A stretch of 64,000 bases of DNA. It comes from an uncultured Nitrospiraceae bacterium (lineage in GTDB: Bacteria; Nitrospirota; Thermodesulfovibrionia; Thermodesulfovibrionales; SM23-35). Position 1 is the stretch's first letter, and the number at the start of each line of letters is the position of its first letter. The stretch is taken from contig CAVSHB010000002.1 in NCBI GenBank assembly GCA_963727775.1, positions 256,001 through 320,000 of the forward strand. Direction: 5' to 3'. Positions 7,977 to 33,621 of the stretch are shown here, piece after piece. The notes under the pieces are model-generated. The model searched no databases, was not told where the DNA came from, and saw only the letters and a list, made by a program, of their open reading frames with translations. Position numbers and translations under genes: made by a program.

Positions 7977-8041
7977 CCAACTGAAACTAAAAGAAAAAGT
8001 AGGTTTTGTTACGTATAGCAGGAAGTAATTGAGAGAGATTA

Positions 8042-8781: not shown

Positions 8782-8829
8782 GGGCTCTCCTTGCCCCATG
8801 TCAACGGGTACCCCCTCGTCACTCTTTAT

Positions 8830-10463: not shown

Positions 10464-10512
10464 TTTATAGACCTTACTCCATATTCCGGTTGGTATCACA
10501 TACATACGGCAC

Positions 10513-11067: not shown

Positions 11068-11124
11068 AATGTGTTCTACTCCCTATCGAGTCCTGTGTTG
11101 TCGCGAAAATCTTTCCATTGATAA

Positions 11125-11191
11125 TTTCCGAGTGTACTATGCAGAATTATATCAAGTTTCAAACATGTTTGCTTCAGGAAGAAGGGTTGCA
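11125..11191 (-). repeat. Array repeat copy 2
   Basis: ttccgAGTGT actatgc AGAATTATATCAAGTTTC...TTCAGGAAGAAGGGTTGC. Confidence 0.9.
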
Positions 11192-11214
11192 CTTGTTCTT
11201 GTAATTATGCATGT

Positions 11215-11724: not shown

Positions 11725-11752
11725 CCTTCCATCTACGGCTACAAAGTCGTCC

Positions 11753-11815
11753 TTTCGGTTATAACCTGTACAATTATATCATTCTCATGTGGTCTCAGCT
11801 TCGGGAGGCAGTCTT
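11753..11815 (-). repeat. Array repeat copy 3 (degenerate)
   Basis: tttcGGTTAT aacctgt ACAATTATATCA...TTCGGGAGG. Confidence 0.75.
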
Positions 11816-12033
11816 ACCCGTGGTAACTTTCGAGAATAACCGCATGTCTGTATTCTTCTTTCGAGCGAAAAGTTTGCTGAGAGCTCATCTGGCAGCAAAT
11901 TGGAAAATGCCTACAGAGTATAATAGTTTGGTAAAGACGATGACGACATTACATATTTTTTTATCCGTCCTTCTGGCTACTGACCCTTGGTCAGTCAGTT
12001 CCATTCGGGTTTCGAAAACATAAGACGAATGTA

Positions 12034-12879: not shown

Positions 12880-12965
12880 AAAAAATGAAAGAGCCCTAAC
12901 AGTTAAGTCATGCCAAATATTAACTTAAGGTTGACATCAGTATAGAAGCGCGAGAGTCTTGTCTG

Positions 12966-13038
12966 TTCCCACTTGTACTGAACATGATTATATCAGGTTT
13001 CGGTGCCGTTGACTTCAACAAGGAAGGATTATTGCCTA
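12966..13038 (-). repeat. Array repeat copy 4
   Basis: CTTGT actgaac ATGATTATATCAGGTTTC...CAAGGAAGGATTATTGCCT. Confidence 0.85.
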
Positions 13039-13130
13039 TCAGGACTCTCTGGAATACTACGTTTCTTTCACCCCGTAAGGCGCATAGCTTTTTTATCAAA
13101 GAGACCTGATAACCTTTAAAAACAGAAAGA

Positions 13131-14114
13131 TCAGAAAACATTCACTTTGAATGTCACTACTTTTGCAGGCGGCACATCCTTCTCCCAAGGTCTTATATAT
13201 CTAAAGTTGATTGCTGTTTTACCCTTCCCGGTAGCCTCGAAGAGCCAAACTTCTTTACCTCCTGCACCGATAAGCCCGGTTTGCGATTTCCTATATTTGT
13301 TGCGCACTAACCTGATAATTGTGCTCTCTTTTGGGCTGATCATCTCCCAGTGATATCCTGTGGTGACGTTTGAATCAAGAACAAGCGTAAAATGTTGACC
13401 AGGGGCTACTTCAATCTCCAAGCTGGGATTGCTGAACTCAAGTATATTCGATGCGACATTAATCACTTTTGCTCCGACAAAAGTACCGGAACTTTCGAAA
13501 TCAAAGGCGATCAGTACAGTACCGAGAAGTTCACAAGCGTGACAGCCATTCTGGAGGCGGTAGGCAGCAACAAACCTCTTTCCCTTGTTTAAAAGATCTT
13601 CGCCCTTCACACAAGGGGCGTCATATCTGTCACCAGGCCAGAGATTCACTTTAGGAAAATTGTGGGCTATTTGTTCATACAGTTTGTGCTTCGTTAGGTC
13701 CACATTCTTTAAAATGTCATTATCGTCGATGTCGATGACCGACGGGTTTCCGTTTACGAGATAACATCCGTAGTTCTCATTCGCCCTAAATGGATAAAAA
13801 ACTTGAGCGATATCCACCGCTCCGTCCCTTTGGAAGGCTGTTATATAGGCCGTATTTCCTATGTGTTTGGTAAAGACGATAGCCTCGCATGGGGCCCCTG
13901 AATCTTTCATCACGGTGACGAAACAAGCCCCAAAGTCCTTCACCGCTTCCATTGAACAGCGCTCAAGCACTTGTTGCCTAAAGGAACTACCGGGATTCCA
14001 GACTACTTCCGGACCTATCTGCTGATTTTCGGCTGAGGCGACACCAGTCAGGAAGCATATTATTATAAATATCTGGGCAATCAAACTCTTTATAGGCTCC
14101 CCTTTTTCTGACAT
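13131..14114 (-). CDS. Exported protein with C-terminal chagasin-like (I42) protease inhibitor domain
   Basis: SNVTTGYHW, GAGG, YIRPWE motifs. Confidence 0.85.
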   Translation of the reverse strand: MSEKGEPIKSLIAQIFIIICFLTGVASAENQQIGPEVVWNPGSSFRQQVLERCSMEAVKDFGACFVTVMKDSGAPCEAIVFTKHIGNTAYITAFQRDGAVDIAQVFYPFRANENYGCYLVNGNPSVIDIDDNDILKNVDLTKHKLYEQIAHNFPKVNLWPGDRYDAPCVKGEDLLNKGKRFVAAYRLQNGCHACELLGTVLIAFDFESSGTFVGAKVINVASNILEFSNPSLEIEVAPGQHFTLVLDSNVTTGYHWEMISPKESTIIRLVRNKYRKSQTGLIGAGGKEVWLFEATGKGKTAINFRYIRPWEKDVPPAKVVTFKVNVF

Positions 14115-14195
14115 CGCTTTAAGAATCTAAACCTCCCCCAAAAGACACTTCAAAACTCATTTCTCATTTTTTAAATCCAGCAAGACATTTCACCC

Positions 14196-14265
14196 ATTCC
14201 AGTTGAACTGCGCACAATCATAGCACCTTTGAATGGTGTTACCTACAGGAAGGAAGCTTGCGCAT
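14196..14265 (-). repeat. Array repeat copy 5
   Basis: attccAGTTGA actgcgc ACAATCATAGCA...CTACAGGAAGGAAGCTTGCGCAT. Confidence 0.9.
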
Positions 14266-14416
14266 ATACCTTCATCTTTTTTCACAATGCGTCTTTCGCC
14301 CCGTAATAAAAAGGGTATTTTTACGAGCGGATTCCCCGCTGGAACACCTCGGTTAGATGTAGTCATCATCGCCCAATGTCAGGGCTGACCCCATTCCCCT
14401 GTTACTTACAACAAGC

Positions 14417-16438
14417 TTATGAATCTGTTGATTTCTTGATATCAGTCTTGCCCTCAGAATCAATCTTCATACCAGTGAGTGCAATAGCCTGCGTAAGAAC
14501 TGTCGCGAGCCCTTCAGATGCACCGCCACTTCCGATCGTAAGAATATCAGGCATAATCTTAATCTTACCTGCAGAGATATGTTTTGCGAGCTCGATAGCC
14601 ATAATAGCCTGTGGCCCGATGGCTGTCTTCTGCTTTTCGTAGGCTTCTGCGGTAGCCGTACCGATTGATTCGATTGCCCTGGCATCACCTTCGCCCTTCA
14701 ATTTTGCGCTTTCCGCATTACCTTCGGCAAGTGTAACTGTTTCTCTTTTCTTCTGGTCGGCAACTTTGACGGCGATCTCGGCCCGAACAAGTTCCGGCTG
14801 TTGGTCGGCAGTGGCCTTTGTCTTTTCCATCTCAATTCTTGTAACTTCAGCCTTCTGCTGTTCCTTGTATTGTTCAGTCTGTTGCTGTGCAATAATTTTC
14901 TTTGTCTGTGTATCCATCAGCTCCTGGGGAAGTTTAATTTGACAAATGAGGACCGACACGCACTCAACATGATATTTTTCAAGTTCCAGCCGGGCCCTTG
15001 TTTCAGCCTTTGTCTGTTCTTCTTGTCTGTCCTGCATAAAGTTCATGGCTGAAGTGGTAGAAGCCTGATTTCTGAAGCTGGAATCAATCATTGGGTGAAT
15101 AACGTGAAGAATGAGATTGTCAATCGAACCGACTTTCGCCACCATATAGGGAGCTTGGTCCGGTCTGACTCTTACAACTACCTTAACGGATACTCCAATA
15201 GGGAACCCGTCTTTTGAAATAACACTCAATGGGTCAAACCTTGTCTCTTTTGCATCATCCCAGTCTATCGTTATGTTTGTTGTGTCGATGATATATGGCA
15301 TAAAGGCTAATCTGTTAAGATAGTATTTGCCGGGGCCGGCCACTTCTTCCTGGATGCCCCGATATCCTTTGGGAACCACATATTTCTCTTTGCCTTCTTC
15401 TTCGGTCGCCCCCATTTGAGTTGAGCCGAGTCTTCTCTTCATTTCAGATGTTGGCTCTTCACCCACATTTGAAACGACAACTGCAACCTGTCCACGCTCA
15501 ACAACTGCAACGTCATCAAACGCAACATTAAACATTAACGGGTTTATATAATATGTACCGGGCTTTAGAACATCAAGCTGAGGTCCACGCTGGCCGCCGC
15601 CTTTAAGGAATGAATTGGCATCCTGAAAATCGGAGTGTCCGGCGACTGACTTGGCAACATATTCTTTGTCAGGAAGCGGATCACCATCCTTGGCGATAAC
15701 CAAACCGACTTTTGCAGACTCAATCACTGCGGCTGGCTCAGTTGCCACCTGGAATAAATGAGTGTTGATACGATAAGTCCCTGGGAGAAGGATATCGATC
15801 TGTGGGCCTTTTTGCCCGCCATTCGCAAGAAACTTTTCACCAGCTTCAAAGTTATGATGGTCAGGCACACTTACTGCCAACAGTCTACCGGCAGCTATAG
15901 GATTGCCATCCTGCGATGTAACAACTCCCACCTGACCTTTTTCGATAACAACTGCCTGAGCAATTGATACCTTAAAGAGGTATGGATTTATTCTGTATTT
16001 ACCAGGCGGGAGGATGTCAATCTGCGGACCTTTCTGCCCCCCGTTTTGTAAGAACGCCTCCCCATCCTGAAAAGAATTATGACCCTGTACCACCTTTGCA
16101 AATATTTTACCGGGAGGGATTGCGCTGCCATCGACTGATTCGATAAGACCGACCTGCCCGTCCATAATCTCTACAAACTCGCTCTTTTTTGCAGTATAAA
16201 TAAACGGAATAAGAAAATGCATTCCCGGCCCCAGCGTCCTTGCCTGAATCCCGACTTCGTTGTTCATGGCAACGACCCTGCCCTGTGGCATCTTCCTGCC
16301 AAACCATCTCCGTTCAATAAGGGCAATCTCTTTACCACCGACAATAACAACTGATTGATATGCCAGGATTAAGGCGATAAATCCTATAATTATTCCCCCT
16401 ACTGAAAGCACGCCGATCAAATGCGAAAGAATTTCCAT
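14417..16438 (-). CDS. SPFH/flotillin-family membrane protein
   Basis: N-terminal TM, three GGQxGPQxDxLxPGxYxIN repeats, band-7 region, Ala/Glu/Lys-rich tail. Confidence 0.88.
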   Translation of the reverse strand: MEILSHLIGVLSVGGIIIGFIALILAYQSVVIVGGKEIALIERRWFGRKMPQGRVVAMNNEVGIQARTLGPGMHFLIPFIYTAKKSEFVEIMDGQVGLIESVDGSAIPPGKIFAKVVQGHNSFQDGEAFLQNGGQKGPQIDILPPGKYRINPYLFKVSIAQAVVIEKGQVGVVTSQDGNPIAAGRLLAVSVPDHHNFEAGEKFLANGGQKGPQIDILLPGTYRINTHLFQVATEPAAVIESAKVGLVIAKDGDPLPDKEYVAKSVAGHSDFQDANSFLKGGGQRGPQLDVLKPGTYYINPLMFNVAFDDVAVVERGQVAVVVSNVGEEPTSEMKRRLGSTQMGATEEEGKEKYVVPKGYRGIQEEVAGPGKYYLNRLAFMPYIIDTTNITIDWDDAKETRFDPLSVISKDGFPIGVSVKVVVRVRPDQAPYMVAKVGSIDNLILHVIHPMIDSSFRNQASTTSAMNFMQDRQEEQTKAETRARLELEKYHVECVSVLICQIKLPQELMDTQTKKIIAQQQTEQYKEQQKAEVTRIEMEKTKATADQQPELVRAEIAVKVADQKKRETVTLAEGNAESAKLKGEGDARAIESIGTATAEAYEKQKTAIGPQAIMAIELAKHISAGKIKIMPDILTIGSGGASEGLATVLTQAIALTGMKIDSEGKTDIKKSTDS

Positions 16439-16507
16439 GTAACCTCCATTTTTATTGGTTTCCTTTAGCTTTGTTGCTTATCATTAATTTATCATGATTC
16501 ATATTTA

Positions 16508-16568
16508 ATTCCGGTTGTACTGAGCATAATTATATCAGGTTTCCCTACAGTGGGTTTCAGGAAGAAGC
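16508..16568 (-). repeat. Array repeat copy 6
   Basis: attccGGTTGT actgagc ATAATTATATCAGGTTTC...TTTCAGGAAGAAGC. Confidence 0.92.
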
Positions 16569-16578
16569 AAAGAATCTA

Positions 16579-16761
16579 TTATTTGAGCCCGATCTTTTTC
16601 CAAAACATAAGTCCAGGGCAAATTCCTGTTATCCCTGCAAGGGTAAATAAGCCAACTAGAATATAAAGGAACCAATGAACCTTATCAAAACCTGTTAACC
16701 ATATCCCTATAAAAATCAAGAAAGCGACTGTTATAAATTGTGCTCTCAGAGCTGAAGACAT
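16579..16761 (-). CDS. Small membrane protein (DUF2892/YgaP-like)
   Basis: Two TM segments, GITGICPG; RBS GGAGG. Confidence 0.8.
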   Translation of the reverse strand: MSSALRAQFITVAFLIFIGIWLTGFDKVHWFLYILVGLFTLAGITGICPGLMFWKKIGLK

Positions 16762-16780
16762 AGTAAGCCTCCTTTGTTAT

Positions 16781-16833
16781 TTTCCTTTTGTACTCAAAAC
16801 AATTATATCAGGTCTTCGAGTAGTGGACTACAG
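16781..16833 (-). repeat. Array repeat copy 7, left part (remainder at 20062-20080 beyond the IS110 insertion)
   Basis: TTTGT actcaaa ACAATTATATCAGG...CTACAG | GAAGGAAGCTTGCCTAT. Confidence 0.9.
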
Positions 16834-17399
16834 CTTGCTATATTGTAGTTAATGATGAGATCGATATATCTTCCAGGTAAGAATTGTTTATCCGGCAAAG
16901 GAAAGAAGGAGGAGATATTTATGAAAGGGTTACGGACGAAAAGAGTAAACATGATAAAGGAAGGGGCATTGATAGTAGCGATAGACATTGGTATGGCAAG
17001 TAACCATGGGTGCTGTGTGGCAGCAGACGGGAGGAGCACCAAGACATTCAAGTTTGATAATACAAGAGAAGGACTTGATAGATTGTGGAACATGGTACTT
17101 GCGAGCAAAACCAGATTTCAATGCAATGAGGTCATTATAGGATATGAGTCAACCGGACCTTATGGAGAGCCGTTGGTTCACTATCTCAAGCAGAAACCAG
17201 CAACGATCGTACAAGTAAACCCACTGCACACGAAGAGGATGAGAGAGATCAATGACAACTCTCCATTAAAGACTGATCGTAAGGATCCCCGGGTAATCGC
17301 GGATGTCATACGGATAGGGCACGCCTTAAGCGTCGTGGTCCCAGAAGGTGCTGCCGCCTATTTGAGAAGAATAAATAATGCACGGGAGAGACATATTAA

Positions 17400-19019
17400 C
17401 CCGAAAAATGCGTTTGCTATAGGCATACCTATAGAGTCAAGCCTATCAAGGCATTGGCTGATTTGTCGATATAAAAGCTAATACTGATGCTGTTTCTTGT
17501 TCCACCTCCTGAAAATTATGTTCTTTTTATCTAAATGCAGTGCAATTACCAAAACTGGGGGGAAAGTATTGTCCCACGCGGTTAAAGAGGTAGCGCAGTT
17601 TTGATCGTACTTTCTGCGTAAAGACAGAAATCCGCAATACAGGTTTCCTTCCATCCCATCCTAATTGGGCTGGAAGGACAAGATACTTGTACCGTAAGGT
17701 TTTCAAACGTTCTGTCTTTTCTTTTTGACCGAGTATCTGATGCCTGAACAGGACAAACAGATTGTAGATGAATACCCGAATAAGCATAGCCGCCTCCGTT
17801 GAGTAGAAATACTTCATCGAGAACCCGCCGAGTGCAAAATCCTCTTTCAGTTCCTTGATGGTATTCTCATCGTTCGCCCTATGCCTGCATTGCTTCCATA
17901 CCTCATATGTAGAATCATGTGAATTGGTTATCCATACGCTATAACGATAATGCCCTGTATCAAACTCATCTCCGAAAAGAGACAACTCTTTTCCCATCGC
18001 GTGCGGTCTCTTCTTGACATCCTGGCGCACTGCAATAAACCTCCTGTCGATTATCCACTCTACATGCTGGAAGAAGAACTCAGTGATCCATATCCCTTCT
18101 TCTACCTGTGCCCAGTTTTGTTGTGCGTAGATTATCCTCTGCAGCGGACGATATAGGCGAGCAGCTATGATATATACTAATTCTCTCTTCTCAAGCAGTT
18201 CGATGAACTCCCTAAGATAAAATCCACTGTCTGCAATAATGCCCTTGATATCGATATGACCGTTGATCCTCTGCCATGTGGATTCAAAAAATCCAATAAT
18301 GTTGTTCCATGACATCACGTTGCCGGGGCGGTTCCAAAGATTTATCACATACTTGTTTCTGTTAAGAAATGCCAGAAGCGGGCTGTGGCTACCACGGCCC
18401 TTCTTCTTCGGGTTATATCCCCTCTTGACTCCCTCCTGTTTTCCGTATCGCTCAAGGACTGTAGAATCGAACGTCAACCAGTCCTCTTTGAGCTCTTTCC
18501 AGGGGATCAATCTCTTCAAGTATCCCCATAATCCCTCCGACATCTCTTCCACTTCCTTCAGTTTTCTGATCTTCCTGAAAAGCCTGCCCAATGTCGTCGA
18601 GGCGATAGGAAGCCTCTTCACTGCAAAAAGATCGGTGAAAATCTCCTGCCAACCAAGATAAAGTAGATGAGAAAACCTGCTGCCTCCCGCATAGATCAGA
18701 AGGATGTATGCCAATACCTTGCTGTATATCCCCATTCCATTGGGTGAACTCTCATGGATCGGAATCACCTCTTGCAAAATTCCTCTCAATTTGATCTTTT
18801 CAAAAAATGCAGCCAATAAACTGAATCCCCCATATGCCGTCATCTTCTTCTCCGTAAATCCAATCCTTACTTTATTTATTTCGATCTTTGTGCTACATTT
18901 TGACTGCATATTTCTATTCTCCTTTCGTTTAGAGTTGATGGTCGGGTAAACCTATTGATTCTAATACGAAAGGAGAATTTCTTCGGGGATATTATTTTAG
19001 GTCAACTGCACTTTTTGGG
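17400..19019 (-). mobile_element. IS1380-family element nested in IS110
   Basis: Ends CCCGAAAAATGC / GCACTTTTTGGG; TTAA duplication (17396-17399, 19020-19023). Confidence 0.9.
17527..18909 (-). CDS. IS1380-family transposase (ISEcp1-like)
   Basis: TFDST, GYNPKKKG, ADSGF, RANDENTIKELK. Confidence 0.93.
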   Translation of the reverse strand: MQSKCSTKIEINKVRIGFTEKKMTAYGGFSLLAAFFEKIKLRGILQEVIPIHESSPNGMGIYSKVLAYILLIYAGGSRFSHLLYLGWQEIFTDLFAVKRLPIASTTLGRLFRKIRKLKEVEEMSEGLWGYLKRLIPWKELKEDWLTFDSTVLERYGKQEGVKRGYNPKKKGRGSHSPLLAFLNRNKYVINLWNRPGNVMSWNNIIGFFESTWQRINGHIDIKGIIADSGFYLREFIELLEKRELVYIIAARLYRPLQRIIYAQQNWAQVEEGIWITEFFFQHVEWIIDRRFIAVRQDVKKRPHAMGKELSLFGDEFDTGHYRYSVWITNSHDSTYEVWKQCRHRANDENTIKELKEDFALGGFSMKYFYSTEAAMLIRVFIYNLFVLFRHQILGQKEKTERLKTLRYKYLVLPAQLGWDGRKPVLRISVFTQKVRSKLRYLFNRVGQYFPPSFGNCTAFR

Positions 19020-19825
19020 TTAAAGAGCGGACCGCTCTTCTCAACCAATTACGGCAGTTTGTGTTTCTCATATTCCCAGAATTTGGCCGAATAATAAAGA
19101 CGATATTCTGCAAAACATCCTTACATATACTCAAGAAATATACGACACCGGCAAAGGTATGCAGCGTAAATATAGAGAAACTTGGAGGGGAAATGAGGAG
19201 ATGTAGCATGGGCAAATTCGGGGTAGAACATGCTACGGCGCTGATCAATTATGCAAAGACCACCATCGGTATTCAAGAAGGGTTGGACGGATTAGTTATG
19301 GATATACAGCACGCCCTCGTCCAGCTGGAGATGGTCGATAGTCTCATAGCGGAACTGGAGCACGAGATGGAGACAACCCTACAGCGCATACCCTACAGTC
19401 GCAAACTCCTGTCAATCAAAGGGCTCGGGATAGTAACGGTAGCAGGGCTTATTGGTGAGATAGGCGACTTTACAAAGTTTAAAACGCAGTCTGAGATAGC
19501 GAAGCTTGCCGGTCTTGACCTGTACGAAGTAAGCTCCGGGAAAAGACAAGGACAGAGGAGGATATCAAAGAGGGGCAGAAGCCTGTTACGGAAAATACTG
19601 TATTATGCCGCCATGCAGACAATCAGAAAGAACGGCATTATGCATGAGTACTACCAAAGACTGATAGGCCGGGGCATGAAAAGTATCATGGCGCTCGTTG
19701 CAGTATCCAGGAAACTATTGAGGATCATATTTGCAATTGTAAGGGATGACACTGAATTCATAATGAATCATGAAGCTCAGAGAAAGGAGGAGATGAGAAA
19801 GGCCGCTTAGAGTTATAATTCACGT

Positions 19826-19990
19826 AGGCGGGGAGATTATCGTTTTCTTCCTTTAAGGCGCAATGCGACCTTCGACTACAGAATACATAACTCCCCGTCG
19901 ACATTCTAACTCCAATTAAGCAAGGTAAAAGCGTTCAATACGACTTTCAAATTACAAGGGTTGGGTAGGATGTCACATACAAGATGGGGG
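19826..19990 (+). ncRNA. Putative IS110 bridge RNA 1
   Basis: Scaffold shared with element 2; loops carry TTCTTCCT and GACTACAG (target flanks), AGCAAG and ACAAG (element ends); boundaries approximate. Confidence 0.8.
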
Positions 19991-20088
19991 ATAACCGTCT
20001 ACGAGAATAGATATTTCTATCTAAGTCCACATATAAAAATATATCTTGACTGGAATAAACAAGGAAGGAAGCTTGCCTATGATTCTGC

Positions 20089-20457
20089 TCAAAACTCATA
20101 TCCTCTCTTCACCCAATAATGCCAGTCGGCAACGGCTTCTAGGGTTTGCTCATCTGCTTTCGATACTTTGAGCTGGCGCAATGGAACTGCCAAAGATCGT
20201 TTTTGCCAGCTGATCATGACAAACATATCATGCTCACACTCCGTTTCCGGGGCCATCTTTGTTACTTCTACTTCCTCACCGATAAGAAGTGGCGATGTTT
20301 TTCTTGTAGCAATACACTTCGCTTTGAATGGAAATCTCAGTTTGTCTTCGAGGTAATAATACCATCCCAGTGAACGCTCTTCCTCGTTGTAAGCGTCAAC
20401 GACAATTTCCATGAGAATGCGGTCTTCTCTAATCTCATCTTCTTTGATTCTCGACAT
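20089..20457 (-). CDS. CcbP-like calcium-binding family protein
   Basis: EIVVDAY...GWYYYLEDKLRFPFKAKC...DWHYW. Confidence 0.8.
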   Translation of the reverse strand: MSRIKEDEIREDRILMEIVVDAYNEEERSLGWYYYLEDKLRFPFKAKCIATRKTSPLLIGEEVEVTKMAPETECEHDMFVMISWQKRSLAVPLRQLKVSKADEQTLEAVADWHYWVKRGYEF

Positions 20458-20542
20458 ATTTTGTATAGAATGAAACGCCTCGTTAATAATTGCTCCTTGC
20501 TTTTAAGACGCACTTTTGAGTGCCGATGGTCTTTCCGCAACA

Positions 20543-20610
20543 ATTCCATTCGTACTCAACAGGATTATAGCAAATTCCAACATGCAAGATTTCAGGAAGG
20601 ATTGTTGCCT
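20543..20610 (-). repeat. Array repeat copy 8
   Basis: attccATTCGT actcaac AGGATTATAGCA...TTTCAGGAAGGATTGTTGCCT. Confidence 0.85.
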
Positions 20611-20730
20611 CTCCGCTTTGAGTCCGGTATCATACGTCTTTCGCCACGGAAGAAAAATGGATCTTTTGGTTCTGCCACCTATAATTACGCGGAGGCGACA
20701 AAACGTAAAAAGTATTGATTAAAAGTAAAC

Positions 20731-20793
20731 GGGTAACATGAGCGTCACCCGGAGCGGGCTTTTTTCGCGATTGGGTATACGTACTTGTTATGT
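20731..20793 (-). repeat. attC-like imperfect palindrome
   Basis: Minus strand ACATAAC (contains stop of 20788..21159)...GTTACCC; 63-bp imperfect hairpin. Confidence 0.5.
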
Positions 20794-21159
20794 TTCTGCC
20801 TTTGATTCCCAGCCGTAATGCCCGAAACCATCTGTTTGATCCTCATGGGCCGGGTTGTCCTCAATACCCGCTGAATATACTGCCACTCGTCCCTCATAAA
20901 CGTCCGAGACTATGTCAGACACATCACGGTAACCGGCCTTCTGTAGTTTCATTGTCATCTCGTTGAAGACTTCGTCATCAGCCCAACCAGTTTTGTTCCG
21001 GAGATGCTTGATCTCTTTGATACACCTCCTGACATCCATGCGCCAGCCTTCCACGGACTTGTTGTGATGGATGAACGTGAGGTGGTCCGATCCTAACCGC
21101 AAATCAAATAGCCGGATACCTTGTCGTGCCAATAACTCATGCAATTTTTTATCATCCAC
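20788..21159 (-). CDS. Hypothetical protein
   Basis: 123-aa ORF between a repeat copy and the attC-like site. Confidence 0.75.
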   Translation of the reverse strand: MDDKKLHELLARQGIRLFDLRLGSDHLTFIHHNKSVEGWRMDVRRCIKEIKHLRNKTGWADDEVFNEMTMKLQKAGYRDVSDIVSDVYEGRVAVYSAGIEDNPAHEDQTDGFGHYGWESKAET

Positions 21160-21192
21160 TTGACCTTCATCTCCTGTCCATAATATTTATTG

Positions 21193-21263
21193 ATTACCGG
21201 TTATACTAAGCACAATTATATCAGGTTTCAATCTTGCCGGTTTCAGGAAGGAAGCTTGCGCAT
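21193..21263 (-). repeat. Array repeat copy 9 (near consensus)
   Basis: attaccGGTTAT actaagc ACAATTATATCAGGTTTC...TTTCAGGAAGGAAGCTTGCGCAT. Confidence 0.93.
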
Positions 21264-21293
21264 GGTATAAATAAGAGCGACCAGATTTCTTTA

Positions 21294-21701
21294 TTAATGG
21301 AGACCGTTCTCATTGAAATGTTTTGAATACTTCTTGTCAGTTCCAAGGATGTGACTTTGAAGCCAGTCTTTGAGAAAATTCAATATTTCCAACGTGAGAA
21401 CGAAACCTGATTTTTCTAGCCGCTCTTTTAAGTCAAGGGCTTTCACTGCGAATTTATCGTGTTCAATCTTATGAGATGGATAACTCGCAAAGTTGAACTT
21501 CCGCATATACTTTTCTTCTGTTTCAAAATGAGTTTTTGCATAATTAACCATCTTGTTAATTATTTCTTTCTGTGCCTCACGGCCCTTATCTGAAAGCAAT
21601 GCATCATGTAAAGTATTAACCATTTCAACCAACGTTTTATGTTGATTATCAATTTCTTTCACATTAACACTGAAACTATCCGACCACTGGAAAATAGCCA
21701 T
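21294..21701 (-). CDS. Bacteriohemerythrin
   Basis: [33 protein letters not shown]. Confidence 0.95.
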
Positions 21702-21868
21702 GTATACGTTCCTCCTTTTTTATTTTATCTATCTAACATTATGCCAACTTGGTATTTCTCGATTTCTTGAAATAATATAGCATAGTAAGGAATTACTTGA
21801 AAAAGAAAATTACAGAGAAATTTATAATAAACATCAAGATGTCCGATGAGAGTTCCTATTAATTTGCA

Positions 21869-21929
21869 AGAGTACTTAACAGCCTCAGCTCGATACTCCC
21901 CGCGTTTAGTACAGGAAGGATGCTTGCCT
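21869..21929 (-). repeat. Array repeat copy 10 (degenerate middle)
   Basis: AGAGT acttaac A...TACAGGAAGGATGCTTGCCT at near-correct spacing. Confidence 0.65.
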
Positions 21930-22083
21930 TTCAGAAATATTCGAAATACTTTCAAAAAGTCTACGTGATGGATAAATCTCCTCGGGTAGTAAGCTTCATC
22001 CCGAAGTTTTCATGGGAGGTGCTCACAAATTTCCCACACTTTCTTTTGATATTTCGCAGCTAATCTTCAACTAGTTGGAACAA

Positions 22084-24000
22084 TTAAGACTTACCTTGGG
22101 TCACGCTTGCTATTTTGGTTTTTTTCTTGATGACGATCTTGTCGGTTGTTAATTTGGATATGTCATCAAGAAATTGCTGTACTTTTTGATATTCTCCGAC
22201 AGGGATCCGCACCCGTTTATAACGGATAATTTCTTTAGCTATGATTTTACTACCTTGAGTGCTATAGTTGCGAGTGTAGGTACCAAAGGCAGTATCTATA
22301 GATATTATGATAGGGACGCTAACAGTTTCATATCCGTCGGGGATACAGAAGTCAATCGTGTTTTCCATCCGAGATTCCTGAGAAACGATTATCGGATACC
22401 GTCTCTTGGGCGCTGTAAATAGCTTCCCTCGTTTAATCGGAGGTAATCCGAACAGCATCATGTCACCGGCCTTCTGGACTATAGTTGGGTCGTCGAATTT
22501 CATGGCAAGGGTCATCTGTGAGTATGGTACATTTTCATTTATCAAATCCGCTTTGAACACGGTTCCGCCTTCTGCTATCGATTTCCCCAATGCAGCCAAA
22601 AATTTTTCCCTATCGTCACTGCCGTGGGCCTTCAATCCCTCGCGCATTATAACAGACCAACTTCGGGGGAAAGTCACCGTCAGATCCACGGAAACGGGAA
22701 CATCCTCCTTCACTAACACCTTTCCGTTAATTATCGTTGCCACTTCGCTATCATCCGTGAGTGGTATGGTCGCAAACTCCCCGCCTTGCTCGTTTACAAT
22801 GAAGGCTCCTTTGCCGGCCAGGGTGGGCGGTATTTGCTGTACAGGATATCCCTTGAACAACATGTCAGTGTAATATTTCTTTCCTTCAAGATCGAAAGTT
22901 AAAATTACATGATCGAAGTAAAAGGGCATTGGCAATAGATCTCTGCGATTAAGTTCCGATTGGGTAGACAAAAAGACCGGCCTCGCCTTGATGCCAATTT
23001 CGGACAGAATAGCAATTGCCAGTATCGTTTGGTCTTTACAATCACCATATTTGTTTGAAAAAATCTGATCTGCCGGATGAGGTTCAAAGCCGTGAAACTC
23101 TATATGCATCGCCACATACCGGACATTGTCCTGGATATATTGGATTACAGCCTGTATTTTTTCGGGTACTGTTTTTTTATCAAAAGTAAGTTCTGTAGCT
23201 TTTTTCTTCATTTCTGTCGAAACCTTGATATTCTTATCAAACAATGGCCACACCCAGGCAGACAACTGCTTCCAATTATCCAATGTCGAAACCGTCAATC
23301 TTTTATAGCGTTCTTCCGGGGAGGGCATGTTTTGTTCATCTTCGTCCTTATCGAAATTGTCTCCGCGCCATATATAGGTCACCTCATTTTCGGACATTAA
23401 TACTGTCGGCTTGATCTCGTTATTTAGGTTCTTGAAATTCAGCTTCATGTCTTTTGGTGCGGTAATCGTATATCGCGCTTCCTTGACAGGACAGAAACAC
23501 GAGAAACGGAAACTGTCATAGAAGCTGTTCTCAATAATCGGTTTCTTCGTCACGATTGTCGCCTTCCACTCGATCACGCTTCCGACGACTACATTCGGCA
23601 TTGTAATTACCTTGATCCGATTATCGCTGTAAATACCAGAACTCCCGGCAGGGTTGATTTCCTGAATTTTTTCATATTGCCGCTTAGTACCATCAGGCAT
23701 AATGATGTATGCTTCCAAATCTTTTATTTCTTGGCGGCTCTGGTCATAATCTACCGTTATTTCCCCACGGTCTTTTCCAGCCTCATGCTGAATCTTCTCG
23801 ATAATATGAGTACTTTCTGTAAAGGAATAATCTGCGTTGATTTTAATCGAAACTTCCTTGAGAACCGTTATGTAGGGTTCACTCTGGTAACGCTCCTCCC
23901 ATGCATGATCATCCTCTGCTGCAAAAGATATGGAAAACATGCAGAGTGTAAATATGACAATAATCCCTGCTAATTGTATTCCCGTCTTGTGTAAAGCCAT
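22084..24000 (-). CDS. DUF3857 plus transglutaminase-like exported protein
   Basis: Signal peptide; GDCKD, FDHVI, YTD catalytic-triad-like motifs. Confidence 0.9.
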   Translation of the reverse strand: MALHKTGIQLAGIIVIFTLCMFSISFAAEDDHAWEERYQSEPYITVLKEVSIKINADYSFTESTHIIEKIQHEAGKDRGEITVDYDQSRQEIKDLEAYIIMPDGTKRQYEKIQEINPAGSSGIYSDNRIKVITMPNVVVGSVIEWKATIVTKKPIIENSFYDSFRFSCFCPVKEARYTITAPKDMKLNFKNLNNEIKPTVLMSENEVTYIWRGDNFDKDEDEQNMPSPEERYKRLTVSTLDNWKQLSAWVWPLFDKNIKVSTEMKKKATELTFDKKTVPEKIQAVIQYIQDNVRYVAMHIEFHGFEPHPADQIFSNKYGDCKDQTILAIAILSEIGIKARPVFLSTQSELNRRDLLPMPFYFDHVILTFDLEGKKYYTDMLFKGYPVQQIPPTLAGKGAFIVNEQGGEFATIPLTDDSEVATIINGKVLVKEDVPVSVDLTVTFPRSWSVIMREGLKAHGSDDREKFLAALGKSIAEGGTVFKADLINENVPYSQMTLAMKFDDPTIVQKAGDMMLFGLPPIKRGKLFTAPKRRYPIIVSQESRMENTIDFCIPDGYETVSVPIIISIDTAFGTYTRNYSTQGSKIIAKEIIRYKRVRIPVGEYQKVQQFLDDISKLTTDKIVIKKKTKIASVTQGKS

Positions 24001-24070
24001 ATACCATTCCTCCTTGGTATTTGATAATTAACGGCTCCGCTCCATTATAGCAGATTCTTTTCCGCTAAAG

Positions 24071-24139
24071 ATTTACGGTTGTACTAAACATCATTATGTT
24101 AGAGTTCCATGGTGTTTAGAAGAGGAAGAATGGTTGCCT
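24071..24139 (-). repeat. Array repeat copy 11
   Basis: atttacGGTTGT actaaac ATCATTATGTTAG...GAGGAAGAATGGTTGCCT. Confidence 0.8.
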
Positions 24140-24200
24140 CACGCGCCTATGCATCCTTTGTCCTGGAATAAGCGTACCGTTCTATAAATGTCCTGTGAAC

Positions 24201-24653
24201 CTACTTGTTTGCATCTATGTTCTTATTCTTTAAGACCAATCGGATTGCAACAAGCGTTTTCTTGTTCTCCTCTGTAGGGAAGAGATCGTATGCTTTGGCA
24301 TAGTTTGCCTCCGCCTCCTTGGTATTGCCAAGTTCCTGATTCAGGGAGCCAAGCAGTGTATATCCGTAATAGAAGTCCGCATGTGCCTTAATTAGTCTCT
24401 GTAACATACCCTGCGCTTTATGGAACTCCCCTTTATCCAAAAGGCTTCTTGCCTCTTGCCAGGAATCCGTAGATTGCGGCACAACGCTGAGACGGCTCGA
24501 CATGCGATGTATGAATGGAGTCACCGCCACAACAGACACAACTAAGATACAAAAGACAATAGTGACTATTATGTACACCTTGTTAACTTTCTTAAATAAA
24601 GCCGTCTGATTCTTTAACTCTTCAAGAATTTGCCGTTGTATATCTTCATCCAT
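24201..24653 (-). CDS. Membrane-anchored TPR protein
   Basis: TM helix then TPR-like LG...G...EA...Y.KA..L.P; RBS GGAG. Confidence 0.82.
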   Translation of the reverse strand: MDEDIQRQILEELKNQTALFKKVNKVYIIVTIVFCILVVSVVAVTPFIHRMSSRLSVVPQSTDSWQEARSLLDKGEFHKAQGMLQRLIKAHADFYYGYTLLGSLNQELGNTKEAEANYAKAYDLFPTEENKKTLVAIRLVLKNKNIDANK

Positions 24654-24671
24654 TGCTCTCTCCTTTACTCC

Positions 24672-24731
24672 TTTCCGATTGTACTACGCACAATTATATC
24701 AGGTTTGAATGTTGCGGGTTTCAGGAAGCAA
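24672..24731 (-). repeat. Array repeat copy 12
   Basis: tttccGATTGT actacgc ACAATTATATCAGGTTTG...TTTCAGGAAGC; perfect ATTGT-N7-ACAAT. Confidence 0.92.
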
Positions 24732-24757
24732 TGGGGAATTTAGAAAATCAGCGGACC

Positions 24758-25126
24758 TCAAATTCTATCTCTCAATAGAAAAATACTTCCAACGATTAAC
24801 ATGGGAGCACTTATCCTCAAAAAAAATTGGAATAATGATTGCAAATCTACAGACGTATAGAATGAAAAAGCAATCAGGGATACAATACTACCTGTGACGA
24901 GCCATGATCCACCAATTTTATTTCGGAAGATTGACAGAATCACCGCAGGCAATGTTGAAATAGGCCCACTTAATATAATAAGCCATGATATCCGGGGTTC
25001 GTCTTGCCTGAAAACAAAAATTGCTCTTGTTCCTAAGAAGAAATGCATAACACCAATGCCGATGCCTACTATAATAATGCCTACATATAATCCTTTTCTC
25101 TTAATATCCTTATGATGATTATCCAT
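24758..25126 (-). CDS. Membrane protein (about 4 TM)
   Basis: Hydrophobic helices; start moved to ATG 25126 because the longer start lies inside the repeat. Confidence 0.7.
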   Translation of the reverse strand: MDNHHKDIKRKGLYVGIIIVGIGIGVMHFFLGTRAIFVFRQDEPRISWLIILSGPISTLPAVILSIFRNKIGGSWLVTGSIVSLIAFSFYTSVDLQSLFQFFLRISAPMLIVGSIFLLRDRI

Positions 25127-25180
25127 AATAGTCAACACAATTATATCAGGTCTCAAATACGTTTAGTTCAGGAAGGATTA
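25127..25180 (-). repeat. Array repeat copy 13
   Basis: agtcaac ACAATTATATCAGGTCTC...TTCAGGAAGGA. Confidence 0.88.
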
Positions 25181-25253
25181 AGCGGAGATCTTACCGATAT
25201 TCAGACTCATTTTATACCACACAAAAATATGAGGTGAAGGGGATGATTCTTAA

Positions 25254-25613
25254 TTAATTTAATCTCACAATCAAGACATCAGCAACAAGCTCCTTGCCGT
25301 TGTTTGCTGACTTCGTTACTTTCTTGAGAGTGAAATCTTTTCCGCAAACGATTTTTGCAACATCTTCTGTTTTTAGGTTGGAGAACTGTTCTTGAGTTGC
25401 CGCCCACGTTACCGGTCCAACAGTTACTGCTTTTCCCTCGCAATATCCTGCCACCATTGCGGTAACATTCCCAGCTTTGTTGTCATATGTTGCTCCCAGT
25501 CTTCCCGAAACTGTAGAGACAGATGAAGCTGCATAAGCCAGAGTTGCTCCGATGGAAACCGCTACTAATAACAAAACCATGAATAATAATCTCACGTTGG
25601 TCTTTTTACGCAT
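25254..25613 (-). CDS. Small secreted protein
   Basis: Signal peptide MRKKTNVRLLFMVLLLVAVSIGATLAYA. Confidence 0.78.
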   Translation of the reverse strand: MRKKTNVRLLFMVLLLVAVSIGATLAYAASSVSTVSGRLGATYDNKAGNVTAMVAGYCEGKAVTVGPVTWAATQEQFSNLKTEDVAKIVCGKDFTLKKVTKSANNGKELVADVLIVRLN

Positions 25614-25819
25614 TTCGCCCCTCGCTTTTATTCCTCGAAAAAGTTTGTAAGAGAAAATCCGATCCCCCTGAGACATTCTTCCCTTCACCTCTCATCCAGA
25701 CCCATACTGAGAGTTAAAGATTGTGTGGTTAGCTGTATGCTACTCTCTGTCTGGATTCTTGTCAAGATATCGTATATTTGGGTGGGATAATCTTTTACAC
25801 ATATTTGCTTATCGAATAG

Positions 25820-25877
25820 CAGTTAAAGTCCGCACAATTATAGCCGGTCTTGAAGTTGCGTGGTACAGGAAGGAGCT
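25820..25877 (-). repeat. Array repeat copy 14
   Basis: cAGTTAA agtccgc ACAATTATAGCCGG...TACAGGAAGGAGCT. Confidence 0.85.
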
Positions 25878-26033
25878 GAGATTTTAAAAACATCATTTTT
25901 CGCGACCTTCACCCCATACTAAGCATAGCCTTTTTGTTCCCTGCAGTAGTCCATGATGAATAATAATGAATATCTTCGAAACAATCAGTGATTACTTGAG
26001 TCTTTGAAGATGCGTCTTTCATTGTTCTTCTAG

Positions 26034-27736
26034 GAGTCTGTCGGACTTGAATTGCTGTTTTTGACAGCGGTTGGAATCCGAGAGAGTCGATTGTAGTTAT
26101 TTTTCATGATTTGATCGTCTGTCATCGGTTCTTTCCTGCCGGTGTTTTGTTGGATACATTATGCCATCGCCATTTTCAGGCGCCTACCTGGCTGTTCCTC
26201 AATGCATGCAGCCTTTTGATGTTCCATGCAATGCAGATCATATCCCACTCGCCATTGACTGCAGTAAAACCACGCAACAGGAATCGGTCAAATCCCATAG
26301 CTGCCTTGATTACCCCAAACGCCGGCTCCACAGTACTCTTGCGTATCGCATAAATTGCCTTACCGGCAACTGTCTTCAACCGATGTTTCATTCTTGTCAC
26401 TGCATCAGCATCAACCGGCAATGGAGGCGGTTCGACGAATCGCTCCCATAAAGGCTGATTATGACTCTGCCGATCTACTGCTATATATGGCTCTATTCCT
26501 TTGCTCTCACATTCTTGCACATTTGCTTCGCTGTAATACCCGCTGTCGGCTATTATAGTTTTTACTTTGCCAAGTTGTTCGGGCAGATATGTAAGCGCTT
26601 CAAGCGCTGGTTTCATCTGCTGTTTGTCATTGGATTGTTGTGTTACATGCGTTGCGACAATAAGCATTGTTTCTGTATCCACGGCTGCTTGAGCATTATA
26701 AGCCTGCTTGAATCCTCCACCCGATGCCGGCATTATGCGAGATTCTTCATCGGTCAGATTGACCTGATCTTTGTCAGTTGGCCCGGCTGCAGGCGGCTTG
26801 GGTCCTTTGCCTCGGGGTTTCTTGCCGCTCTGCTTTTGTTTGGCTACACGCTCTGCCTGTTTCTTTTCACTGTCGGCTTGTTCCATTGCATGCCGCTCTG
26901 CCGCACGGCGCTCTATCTCAGCTTTTGCTTCAGCTATCATTTTCAGCCGCTTCTCTCGCCGCTCCAGCTCTTCCGGGATGTTCATGCCGTCAGGAATGTC
27001 AGCTTTGTCAGCAGCCTCAGCTTTCTTCATCAGTTCCGCCACTTCCACTTTCAACTTATTCTCTATTTTGCATGCATGCCCGTAGCTCAACGCCTTGTGC
27101 TTTGAGGCATTGGCTTTCATTTTGGTCCCATCCAAGCTGACCGTGCCTAACTTCAATACCCCGGTTTCTGCTGCTATCATTAGTATCTGCACAAACAGTT
27201 CTTTCAGCTTAGGCAAAAACCGACGTCGAAAGGTTGCTATTGTGTCATGGTCAGGGTGACTGTTGGCTGCCACATACCGGAATGCTACAGAGTCGTACGT
27301 GCTACGCTCTAATTGCCTGCTCGAAAAGACTCCCGTCGCATATCCGTAAAATAATAATGCCACCAGCATCTCAGGGCTGTATGCCTCACTGCCTCGTCCT
27401 GCATAATCATTTTTCAACCGGTCAAGATTAAGCTGATCCACTATCTCTACGACAAATCTCGCCAAGTGACCCTCGGGCAACCATTCCTGCACCGACGGCG
27501 GAAATAAATATATCGTCTCTCTGTCACATTGTTTGAACATTATGCTGATCTCCTGTTGTTCATTCTTATGCCGCTTGTCTATTATGCCATAAGGAACGCC
27601 CATGCAGGTCTGTCGGACTTAGATAATTACAGGCCGAAAAGATTTCTGCTGCCCAGTTTGCAATAAAGGTTCTTAAGAGACTGCCGTGTCCTTCAAGAAG
27701 TAAACTTTTCAGAAATGTTGAAAGTCCGACAGACTC
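26034..27736 (-). mobile_element. IS1182-family element, copy 1
   Basis: IRs GAGTCTGTCGGACTT / AAGTCCGACAGACTC, flanked by CTAG; 1703 bp. Confidence 0.93.
26176..27540 (-). CDS. IS1182-family transposase
   Basis: PDHDTIATFR, LDGTK, ADSGY, RKSTVEPAFG; likely start MFKQ. Confidence 0.93.
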   Translation of the reverse strand: MFKQCDRETIYLFPPSVQEWLPEGHLARFVVEIVDQLNLDRLKNDYAGRGSEAYSPEMLVALLFYGYATGVFSSRQLERSTYDSVAFRYVAANSHPDHDTIATFRRRFLPKLKELFVQILMIAAETGVLKLGTVSLDGTKMKANASKHKALSYGHACKIENKLKVEVAELMKKAEAADKADIPDGMNIPEELERREKRLKMIAEAKAEIERRAAERHAMEQADSEKKQAERVAKQKQSGKKPRGKGPKPPAAGPTDKDQVNLTDEESRIMPASGGGFKQAYNAQAAVDTETMLIVATHVTQQSNDKQQMKPALEALTYLPEQLGKVKTIIADSGYYSEANVQECESKGIEPYIAVDRQSHNQPLWERFVEPPPLPVDADAVTRMKHRLKTVAGKAIYAIRKSTVEPAFGVIKAAMGFDRFLLRGFTAVNGEWDMICIAWNIKRLHALRNSQVGA

Positions 27737-27856
27737 CTAGTGTAAATGGCAGAGATTATTTATGGTCAATTTGTCCTATGTCAAGGGCTGACCCCATGGA
27801 TGTCCTTTTTGCGCCTTTACTCTTTCAGCACCTCTACAAACGGGCGTCATTAATCA

Positions 27857-28753
27857 TTAATAGGAAGATATCAGGGGGCAATTTTGGGGTAGCACCAGCT
27901 TAATTGTACCCGGCAGCACCTCAAAGCGAATTTTGTTTGTTTTAATAGGCTCACCATCCAGATTGATCGGCATCGCAACATCAGACTCCCATTCAGCCCA
28001 AGGCACCCTATAACGCTTGATATAATCTCCGCTGACTTCAGACTCCGTCAACTCCCTTATCACTTGCCCCAGATCTTTTGGTGGAAAGCGGAGTAATCCT
28101 ACAATATCCAGCAACCCGTCATCAATAAAAGCGCTGGGAGCTAACTGCTGGCCACCACCGGCCTGCTTACCATTACACACAGCGCCGACGATAACATCAT
28201 TTTGCAAAGACCCCTGGGGCATACGCAGTTCGCCCTTATAAGGCACAAATTTCAGCGCTTGTACCATAGCGGAAAGAGTATAAGCGCCTCCACCGAGAAA
28301 ATTCTTTAACGCCACTGGCGTGTTTGCTGTCACCTGAGCTCCAAAGCCGCCACTGGCCACGTTGATAAAGTGGAATTCGTTGGCCCTTACACCATCAACG
28401 GCACATGACTGACCGGATTGAGCCAGTTCCAGCGCAGCCAATGGATCCGAAGGGATGGAACATGCTGTGGCAAAATCGTTGGCAGTACCAAGCGGCAGTA
28501 TTGCCAATTCCGGTCGCTCAGCGGCTGGCAGTTGTAACATGGCATCAACAACCTCATTTACAGTGCCATCTCCACCGCCTGCCACCAGGCGAAGACATCC
28601 ATCAGCGCAAGCTTCTCGAACCAGCCGTTTAACATCACCTGCTTCCCAGGTGACCCTGACTTCAACGCCGCCGTTTTCTCTTGCGCTGTAAATCGCTGTC
28701 CGAACAGGTTTAAGTGCTGCTTTTTTACCGTTTAAAATGATTCGAATATCCAT
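27857..28753 (-). CDS. yegS: YegS-like lipid kinase
   Basis: RVTWE, AGGGDGT, PLGTANDFA, NLDGEP. Confidence 0.9.
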   Translation of the reverse strand: MDIRIILNGKKAALKPVRTAIYSARENGGVEVRVTWEAGDVKRLVREACADGCLRLVAGGGDGTVNEVVDAMLQLPAAERPELAILPLGTANDFATACSIPSDPLAALELAQSGQSCAVDGVRANEFHFINVASGGFGAQVTANTPVALKNFLGGGAYTLSAMVQALKFVPYKGELRMPQGSLQNDVIVGAVCNGKQAGGGQQLAPSAFIDDGLLDIVGLLRFPPKDLGQVIRELTESEVSGDYIKRYRVPWAEWESDVAMPINLDGEPIKTNKIRFEVLPGTIKLVLPQNCPLISSY

Positions 28754-28825
28754 TCAGAACCAATGGAATTAGCAATATAATTAAAACTATTTTCTTCATT
28801 GTTTATTCAATAAAAAAAGTTAACG

Positions 28826-28886
28826 ATTTATGGTTCTACTCAACACAATTATATCAAGGTCGGAAAGTGTTGCCTACAGGAAGAAA
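28826..28886 (-). repeat. Array repeat copy 15
   Basis: atttatGGTTCT actcaac ACAATTATATCAAGG...CTACAGGAAGAAA. Confidence 0.88.
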
Positions 28887-30812: not shown

Positions 30813-30875
30813 ACAATGATCCTTCCTGAACTAAACATTTCTGAAACCTGATATAGTGGTGCGTAGTTCAACTAG
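30813..30875 (+). repeat. Array repeat copy 16 (inverted)
   Basis: Reverse complement: AGTTGA actacgc ACCACTATATCAGGTTTC...TTCAGGAAGGATCATTG. Confidence 0.9.
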
Positions 30876-31100
30876 TATTCAATAGGCAAATAGAGGAAAA
30901 GGGCCTTGGTAATAGTTGATCTCTCACTGTGTAAAGGATTCTTAAATCTTGAGCCGGACAACTTCTCATGCATTATTTAATTTGTAAAACTTCCTCTACA
31001 AGAAATATCAAACATCCCCGACATACTTTTGTAGAAAATAGGAGTAAAATAGCACTTAATATTTAATAAATTTATCTAAATTAACAAAGGGGAATGTCCC

Positions 31101-33575: not shown

Positions 33576-33621
33576 ATTCGTAATCAGCAGGTCGTCGGTT
33601 CAACTCCGACCACCGGCTCCA
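33576..33621 (+). tRNA. 3' half of tRNA-Thr(CGT); probable att duplication at island end
   Basis: ATTCGTAATCAGCAGGTCGTCGGTTCAACTCCGACCACCGGCTCCA: anticodon loop, T arm and CCA; no 5' acceptor strand or D arm upstream. Confidence 0.88.

Follow-up and report, generated by a model that had tools for sequence, protein, structure and literature searches.

A repeat with a promoter-like box in uncultured Thermodesulfovibrionales as a probable double-stranded recombinase site between mobile gene cassettes

What might a repeat of ~60 bp be doing at the head of one unrelated gene after another? The question is raised by a 64,000-nucleotide stretch (the window) of contig CAVSHB010000002.1 from an uncultured Nitrospiraceae bacterium (assembly GCA_963727775.1), in which column 1 of the repeat is window position 24672 in the copy under study. 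A sequence-only reading had taken the repeat for a tyrosine-recombinase core with accessory boxes, with the crossover in a 7-mer between an inverted pair, GTTGT and ACAAT. The kind of site proposed there is supported, but its placement is not, the core being located 39 bp to the right of the 7-mer. From comparisons among the copies and their flanks, we consider it probable that mobile gene cassettes are bounded by this repeat and that it serves tyrosine recombinases as a double-stranded site.

The number of copies recognized in the window depends somewhat on the method, being 12 with a direct-repeat finder, 14 with an ungapped matrix (best score in 20 shuffles, 8.4) and 15 full copies with a two-part matrix. 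The last of these detected 75 sites at scores above 18 in the genome (3.43 Mb), as compared to a best score of 12.4 in the reversed genome, and the genome total is ~70 repeat sites. The genes between the array copies are unrelated accessory genes, mostly on the minus strand, with a cargo of aspartyl protease, chagasin inhibitor, SPFH, calcium-binding, hemerythrin, transglutaminase-like, TPR and lipid kinase proteins. By crude ORF calls, the nearest gene-side ORF points away from the site at 60 of 70 genome sites; a neighbouring site occurs within 5 kb for 48 of the 70, and 42 of these 48 share its orientation. The units extend from one CAGGAAG to the next, and the 57-bp conserved part sits 5' of the unit's gene. 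There are 137 such core-to-core units, with a median length of 910 bp. The features of the window are collected in Table 1.

Table 1. Features of the window and of the repeat copy under study (window positions; columns are those of the repeat)
Feature	Position	Strand	Basis or remark
Array of 14 co-oriented full copies plus one degenerate copy	8712..28883	+	matrix scans
Full copies of the array (column 1)	8712, 11125, 11752, 12966, 14196, 16508, 16781, 20543, 21194, 24072, 24672, 25119, 25816, 28827		
Degenerate copy in array (core)	21912-21918		
Inverted copy	30822..30878	-	heads plus-strand IPT/TIG gene at 31101
600-bp unit headed by copy 24672	24129..24728	-	contains gene for 150-aa TPR protein (24201-24653)
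273-bp unit	16565..16837	-	recurs complete in a related genome and in a metagenome contig, both neighbours being different there
Copy of tRNA-Thr(cgt) 3' part	33576..33621	+	far end of the ~68-kb island that holds the array
Insertion sequences in or near array	8822-10471, 17393-19023, 26030-27740, 42757-44470, 45001-46263, 58554-60339		
IS110-family element	16834..20061	+	inserted after CAG of the core of copy 16781
Two-tyrosine-recombinase mini-element, 16-bp inverted ends	3115..8019	+	right end abuts AGGAAG (8020-8025)
CAGGAAG, putative 7-bp overlap (crossover core), columns 51-57	24722..24728	+	breakpoints, conservation, element insertions, contig joint
Putative core dyad, left arm (GWAnTnnnCA outward), columns 42-51	24713..24722	-	top reverse peak of arm matrix, 5.72
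Putative core dyad, weak right arm, columns 57-66, part of neighbouring unit	24728..24737	+	arm score 1.35; far-side identity 0.86 at columns 58-66
Putative accessory dyad: arm (columns -5..4), 5-bp spacer (5-9), arm GTACTnnnCA (10-19)	24666..24690	.	maxima of the arm matrix, 3.05 in reverse and 4.84 in forward orientation
TGATATAAT, promoter-like box of the extended -10 type, directed towards the gene	24693..24701	-	overlaps a further arm-like box, columns 20-29 (score 2.93)

Several other characteristics of this neighbourhood deserve mention. The tRNA of the island lies at G000:C2:221854, with an integrase adjoining it. Multi-copy insertion sequences (DDE, IS110 and IS607-like with TnpB) are frequent in and near the array. 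Sites in opposite orientation are paired at G000:C1:375916 and 376048 and at window positions 28827 and 30878, and such pairs could invert the DNA between their cores. The genome has nine HU-like genes, four of which are 92-100% identical (window 29698-29970; G000:C2:581345, C3:348130 and C1:209621); repeat arrays contain or adjoin at least two of these four, and HU could bend the DNA between the two dyads of the repeat described below. The Tex gene at window 39733-42013 seems to be split into two overlapping ORFs by a frameshift or a sequencing error.

In a scan of 301 genomes of the order, a strict form of the repeat pattern was present in 57 (a control pattern in 0), with the bulk of the matches in families f1 (32/54), f2 (11/54) and f6 (10/19) and none in f3, f4, f5, f8, f9, f10, f11 or f13. 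All but one of the 33 exact matches in a species-wide collection carry titles of the Nitrospirota group, the exception being a 4.4-kb Bacteroidales contig. A metagenome scan yielded at least 121 repeat matches, and a search of viral contigs gave 0 exact ones. As far as these matches indicate, the carriers of the repeat, a group of uncultured sediment bacteria, are almost all Nitrospirota. In a search of the main texts of the open-access literature, neither the repeat nor the mini-element listed in Table 1 was found to be described.

The elements from which the 7-mer crossover had been argued are present in the window. The copy under study does read ATTGT-actacgc-ACAAT at 24678-24694, all eight 7-mers named in the sequence-only reading occur in window copies, and two of them are indeed shared, actacgc by the copies at 24672 and 30878 and actcaac by those at 20543 and 28827. 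As a feature of the family, the inverted pair GTTGT/ACAAT could not be upheld, being fully complementary in only 4 of 156 sites and in 1 of 15 window copies; four of its five mirror pairs show no covariation (p 0.27-1.0) and one shows a nominal signal (p 0.03). The 7-mer, although it takes 73 different forms among 156 sites, is also less variable in sequence than had been supposed. Four of its seven bases are conserved (A 99%, C 80%, T 95%, then three variable bases, then C 91%; n=320). The word CAGGAAG is unchanged in 204 of 242 sites.

A more direct view of the crossover can be had from the places at which the neighbours of related copies change. For this comparison, 373 sites with standard spacing and scores above 25 were reduced to 324 by the removal of repeated places. 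The gene-side flank was common to 71 pairs of sites, in only two of which the far flank was also common (these two were dropped), and the statistics were drawn from 28 disjoint gene-side pairs and 10 far-side pairs. Identity in the gene-side pairs was 0.75 at columns 15-17, 0.78 at columns 31-42 and 0.75 at columns 44-48 (backgrounds 0.37, 0.43 and 0.36, respectively), and was down to the background value of 0.32 at columns 58-66. The far-side pairs gave the mirror image, with 0.33, 0.42 and 0.48 at the same three positions and then 0.86 at columns 58-66; a smaller set of pairs gave the same pattern. Because the two identity profiles flip at CAGGAAG (columns 51-57), the switch is placed there. 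The three variable bases of the 7-mer (columns 15-17) travel with the gene, and the mapping of breakpoints that had been proposed as a check shows neighbours changing largely outside the 7-mer, at CAGGAAG. The suggestion that spacer identity chooses the recombining partners (copies 12 and 16, or 8 and 15) finds no support, because the breakpoints fall largely outside the 7-mer.

Tests on individual pairs agree in the main with the averaged profiles and also reveal some heterogeneity. In a block test of columns 31-50, 17 of the 28 gene-side pairs share this stretch at p<0.01, with a further 4 on the borderline and the other 7 no better than background, and no far-side pair of the 10 shares it at that level, while 9 of these 10 share columns 58-75. 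All nine gene-side pairs that are at least 97% identical share at least 17 of the 18 variable columns within 31-50, and in eight of the nine, which are all the near-identical pairs that break, the divergence begins after the core. In seven of the 28 gene-side pairs, all of them 85-95% identical, the similarity breaks off between columns 14 and 35, a zone in which the 7-mer lies, and in several of the seven it does so directly after TGTACT. A single change-point model placed 13 of the 28 gene-side breaks at the core, 9 in the 7-mer zone and 6 elsewhere, and 7 of the 10 far-side breaks at the core and 3 nearby, but it takes the variable columns to age like coding flanks and thereby probably pulls breaks leftward. 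Recent exchange events map to the core CAGGAAG. Some of the older pairs have in addition exchanged or eroded their middle part, and a minor second exchange may take place in or near the 7-mer.

That the main crossover lies in the variable 7-mer, with spacer identity choosing partners, is by these measures very improbable. The seven pairs that end within columns 14-35, the nine change-points in that zone and one far-side pair that shares 13 of 18 columns in 31-50 (p 0.015) are what can be said for it; to be set against them are the near absence of covariation between arms that match perfectly in 4 of 156 sites, the retention of columns 31-50 by every near-identical gene-side pair and by no far-side pair at p<0.01, and the position of the 7-mer inside a match to an arm motif (see below). 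Furthermore, the identical overlaps that most tyrosine recombinases need, according to the abstract of PMC2817482, would suit a constant word and not 73 different 7-mers. Homologous exchange or gene conversion between dispersed repeat copies, operating without a dedicated enzyme, would account for those older pairs that switch in the conserved block of columns 18-30. Recent breaks occur instead at the 7-bp core rather than in that longer conserved block, and the same core is used by a recombinase element, which makes such exchange a very faint prospect as the general explanation.

Entire units can also be seen in changed neighbourhoods. Four families of units recur over their full length while the neighbours on either side differ, and they include the 273-bp unit of the window and an 823-bp unit that occurs twice in the complete genome G023 at 99.4% identity. 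No pair of empty and filled alleles was encountered among the 137 units and 324 sites. Contigs matched to the array cover it patchily, and only one of their joints falls at a site. Here a contig of run X2 joins window position 25865 to 16558, and the 7 letters that fit both sides are the core; the joint is seen in a single contig with a depth of 2.6 and a likeness of 85 (85%), probably from another organism.

Two kinds of mobile elements insert at the same core. The mini-element of Table 1 is ~2.07 kb long and consists of two tyrosine recombinase genes only (337 and 310-335 aa). In the window its first gene is split by an IS21 element (3878-6716), and an intact twin is present at G000:C3:79165-81227; the window copies of both recombinases score below the XerC, XerD and IntI cut-offs. 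In one relative (G022) the mini-element lies within a degenerate repeat, the core of which has been duplicated so that each element end adjoins it. Its second recombinase gene was matched in 25 of 317 genomes, in families f1, f2, f5, f6 and f7 only. Counted by hand, strict repeat hits occur in 12 of the 21 element-bearing genomes common to both samples, as compared to 57 of 301 overall; within f1 the excess is weak (8 of 10 element-bearing genomes versus 32 of 54). Among 67 distinct element ends, which like the genomes are related so that the counts are not independent, repeat-arm scores exceed 4 in 38 (null 1.8%), left-arm scores exceed 4 in 24 (null 0.6%) and accessory scores exceed 4 at the matching distance in 15 (null 1.6%). 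The commonest five-base coupling is AGGAA (8/67), the base after the coupling is G in 36 of 36 right ends, and each of the 23 elements with both ends available has G as the seventh base on either side, the 7-mers being identical in 6.

The junctions of the two-recombinase element demonstrate its use of the putative core dyad as an insertion point. Its target class is wider than the repeat, because among the 67 element flanks a single one reaches a score above 0 as a complete repeat with promoter, and the element mostly uses arm-only or degenerate sites. The recombinase pair appears to accept mismatched overlaps and could serve as a tool. A second family of mini-elements (L367-L396), with matches in 40 of 317 genomes, contains a single tyrosine recombinase of 279 aa; short inverted repeats enclose it, and a -10-like box lies immediately beyond them.

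The other visitor of the core is an IS110 family, all five copies of which in the genome, as well as the IS110 element of the window (itself interrupted by another insertion sequence at 17393-19023), sit after the CAG of a core. The left-arm score exceeds 3 in 7 of the 8 IS110 junctions scored (null 1.1%), two of the eight being from other genomes and without a transposase match in the stretch examined.

The targets of the mini-element provide a description of the site that can be applied to the repeat itself. An arm matrix was built from 59 element target flanks lacking AGGAA (consensus G-A/T-A-n-T-n-n-n-C-A) and run over 317 repeats, where the background over registers has a median of -5.43 and a standard deviation of 2.13. 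It peaks in reverse orientation at columns 42-51 (5.72, a value that is partly circular in that many element targets are degenerate repeats), forward at columns 10-19 (4.84), and again in reverse at columns -5..4 (3.05) and 20-29 (2.93), with weaker peaks at 54-63 (1.79) and 57-66 (1.35). By these peaks the repeat consists of two similar dyads, one around column 7 and the other around column 54, which enclose the -10 box; both share one arm motif, TGnnnAnTWC-N5-GWAnTnnnCA, and their centres are 47 bp apart. Inverted arms around an overlap of 6-8 bp, the general plan of tyrosine-recombinase sites, are represented by the core with its 7-bp word, although the right arm is weak. The accessory dyad contains the 7-mer (24683-24689), and since columns 10-19 read GTACTnnnCA, the three variable bases of the 7-mer are free positions of an arm. 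The two TCAGG words to which the sequence-only reading had drawn attention are 22 bp apart, as two boxes of the same direction, and the autocorrelation of the profile peaks at lags of 22 and 25. By eye, a family of far-side flanks of 60-85 bp (window sites 12966, 14196, 20543 and others) has an apparent second dyad ~49 bp to the right of the core; the matrix scan gave no general peak at that distance.

Between the dyads, 262 of 320 sites carry TGnTATAAT on the gene strand, which is the form of an extended -10 box upstream of a gene start and, with the orientation seen at 60 of 70 sites, makes a built-in promoter probable. The 320 sites have no -35 consensus, and a sigma-70 scan that requires a -35 did not list the box. 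The consensus for IHF binding is WATCAR-N4-TTR. At the one register examined between the core and accessory boxes, its full form was found in 5 of 320 sites, which is not the arrangement of a lambda-type attP.

The promoter-like box raises the rather unlikely alternative that the repeat is primarily a regulated promoter, in which an extended -10 is flanked by a pair of operators for a single regulator, and that the rearrangements are the work of mobile elements that prefer a safe multi-copy motif. The frequency and position of TGnTATAAT would be in keeping with this scenario, as would the IS110 elements at the core (7/8) and the lack of a linked recombinase. It would be unlikely, however, to yield whole units that swap both neighbours exactly at the core, genes without a common function or the shared orientation of 42 of 48 clustered sites, and it does not predict that the target arms of a recombinase element match both dyads.

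We accordingly return to a recombination site, for which the steps might be as follows. Strand exchange would take place within the 7-bp CAGGAAG overlap, the constancy of which would allow every site to pair with every other. An accessory binding role would fall to the second dyad, which holds the 7-mer, and the TGnTATAAT between the dyads would give each cassette its own promoter, such that arrays would need no shared one.

Which enzyme might act on these sites is a separate matter, as no recombinase gene recurs beside them. The integron integrase IntI was considered and set aside, as 0 of 66 matches rose above the TIGR02249 cut-off; the best of them belongs to a broken gene (G000:C1:927674-928966) that has no copy of the repeat in its vicinity. 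In this integron-integrase-like gene (L101) the middle is replaced by a gene for a four-helix bundle of the 23S rRNA-IVP family, with short repeats on both flanks of the insert, and an ordinary integron array may be represented by the small divergent genes that lie upstream. Hairpins of the attC type were likewise rejected, since six copies folded as DNA, one strand each, gave z values of -1.16 to +1.82; Rfam had no match in window 8000-34000. Small serine resolvases near arrays were rejected as well, since most of their relatives are beside no repeat and many have another conserved motif downstream. Their homologues were found in 19 of 301 genomes, and a repeat hit at a score above 8 was present at 3 of 25 loci (one of them strong), which is not the linkage of site and resolvase gene expected of a res site.

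The integrases of tRNA islands belong to a family that also occurs away from the repeats, and we keep these islands as recipients rather than as the source of the enzyme. In several island backbones cassettes have entered at CAGGAAG, at a distance of ~15-20 bp from the arm-type repeats of the island. Such tRNA-targeting islands with a cassette at CAGGAAG are exemplified by G000:C1:1152095-1152375 and by loci L005, L038 and L063; there the arm-type repeats are similar to columns 17-31 of the repeat, and an XerD-arm-like word is present at the same end of the island. A 279-aa recombinase that is divergent from a site in 7 distinct loci forms one clade (1 change on the tree), has inverted repeats of its own and has no match in G000 or G023. 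It is read as the cargo of one unit and is a less likely candidate for the enzyme.

XerC and XerD of the host are the only tyrosine recombinases common to six repeat-rich relatives, and could shuffle the units if the repeat were a dif-like site. Columns 23-33 (TTATATCAGGT) resemble the XerD arm of the genome's dif candidate (8 of 11 positions by eye), but that register would move the crossover to columns 17-22 with a poor XerC arm. The mapped core is without TAA-N6-TTA, and the sites are co-oriented. A dif-type pattern is present at one other site only, the separate single-copy candidate at G000:C1:1518204 (minus strand). Together these points leave the Xer explanation scarcely credible. Among 43 matches in the genome XerD was seen and no clear XerC, unlike the six relatives, perhaps owing to an assembly gap.

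The proteins of the mini-element are the only set seen using this core. On the basis of their targets, the shuffling enzyme might well be supplied in trans by the mini-element family, through either of its recombinases or the two together, an assignment that we rate as plausible but short of probable; otherwise it would be another recombinase with the same arm preference. The second recombinase of the element had no match at 1e-50 in the complete and repeat-rich genome G023 (one contig, 43 hits of the repeat model), or in G052, G053, G006 and G043. A broader and more tentative proposal is that the Thermodesulfovibrionales possess an integron-independent cassette system, in which the promoter-bearing two-dyad site is both the boundary of the cassettes and the target of a minimal two-recombinase transposon, passing copies of which supply the enzyme in trans. 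If this were true, self-expressed genes would be acquired and rearranged by a host that maintains no integrase platform, with IS110 elements living on the same core.

Sites that combine a core with accessory boxes have precedents in attI1, TnpI-IRS and cer/psi, and IS1111 elements are known to parasitise attC. Like attI1, TnpI-IRS and cer/psi, the repeat would have further binding boxes on one side of a core dyad, but its sequence is unrelated to theirs and it is a cassette boundary of many copies; the IS110-family elements aimed at it resemble the IS1111 parasites of attC. Compared to integron arrays (IntI, attI, attC) and CALINs as portrayed in parts of PMC9024848, there are similarities in the co-oriented single-gene units, the repeated boundary site, the site-specific reshuffling and the existence of arrays without a linked integrase. 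Co-oriented units shuffled at a site are thus found here as in integrons, whereas attC and IntI are not. The site has no hairpin or Rfam match and is conserved in sequence rather than structure, its conserved part is at the 5' end of the gene and includes a promoter-like box, and the genome has no intact IntI. Promoters are absent from most integron cassettes, according to the same portions of PMC9024848.

The mini-element invites other comparisons. It resembles the IntDOT of CTnDOT and Tn916-type coupling in its tolerance of overlap mismatches, with identity at one edge (G at position 7, 23/23); IntDOT requires identity only at the first cleavage site, as stated in the abstract of PMC2817482. 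It differs from CTnDOT and Tn916 in being a 2-kb element with two simple recombinases and nothing else, and in having a multi-copy cassette site as target. Tn554, SE, GInt and RIT elements, to the extent that they are covered in excerpts of PMC10214605 and PMC8138268, share with it the tandem tyrosine recombinases, short inverted ends, a target preference and the carriage of a few donor-site bases. These elements need three or four genes (TnpA/B/C; IntA/Tfp/IntB/Srap; GinA-D; RitA-C) by the account in those excerpts, whereas the mini-element has two. In the pdif/dif modules of Acinetobacter and the IS1202 family, as outlined in part of PMC10132070, accessory-gene modules likewise lie between double-stranded sites at which insertion sequences are aimed, but the core described here is without dif-type arms and its ~70 sites are chromosomal and mostly co-oriented.

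The crossover, the arms and a candidate pair of enzymes are now defined well enough for a direct plasmid test, and tools that seek attC would miss arrays of this type. The cassette systems with which they are compared here are the integrons, with their folded attC and mostly promoterless cassettes, and the dif modules; the site of the present system appears to be of a different, double-stranded kind, equipped with a promoter-like box of its own and present at dozens of chromosomal places.
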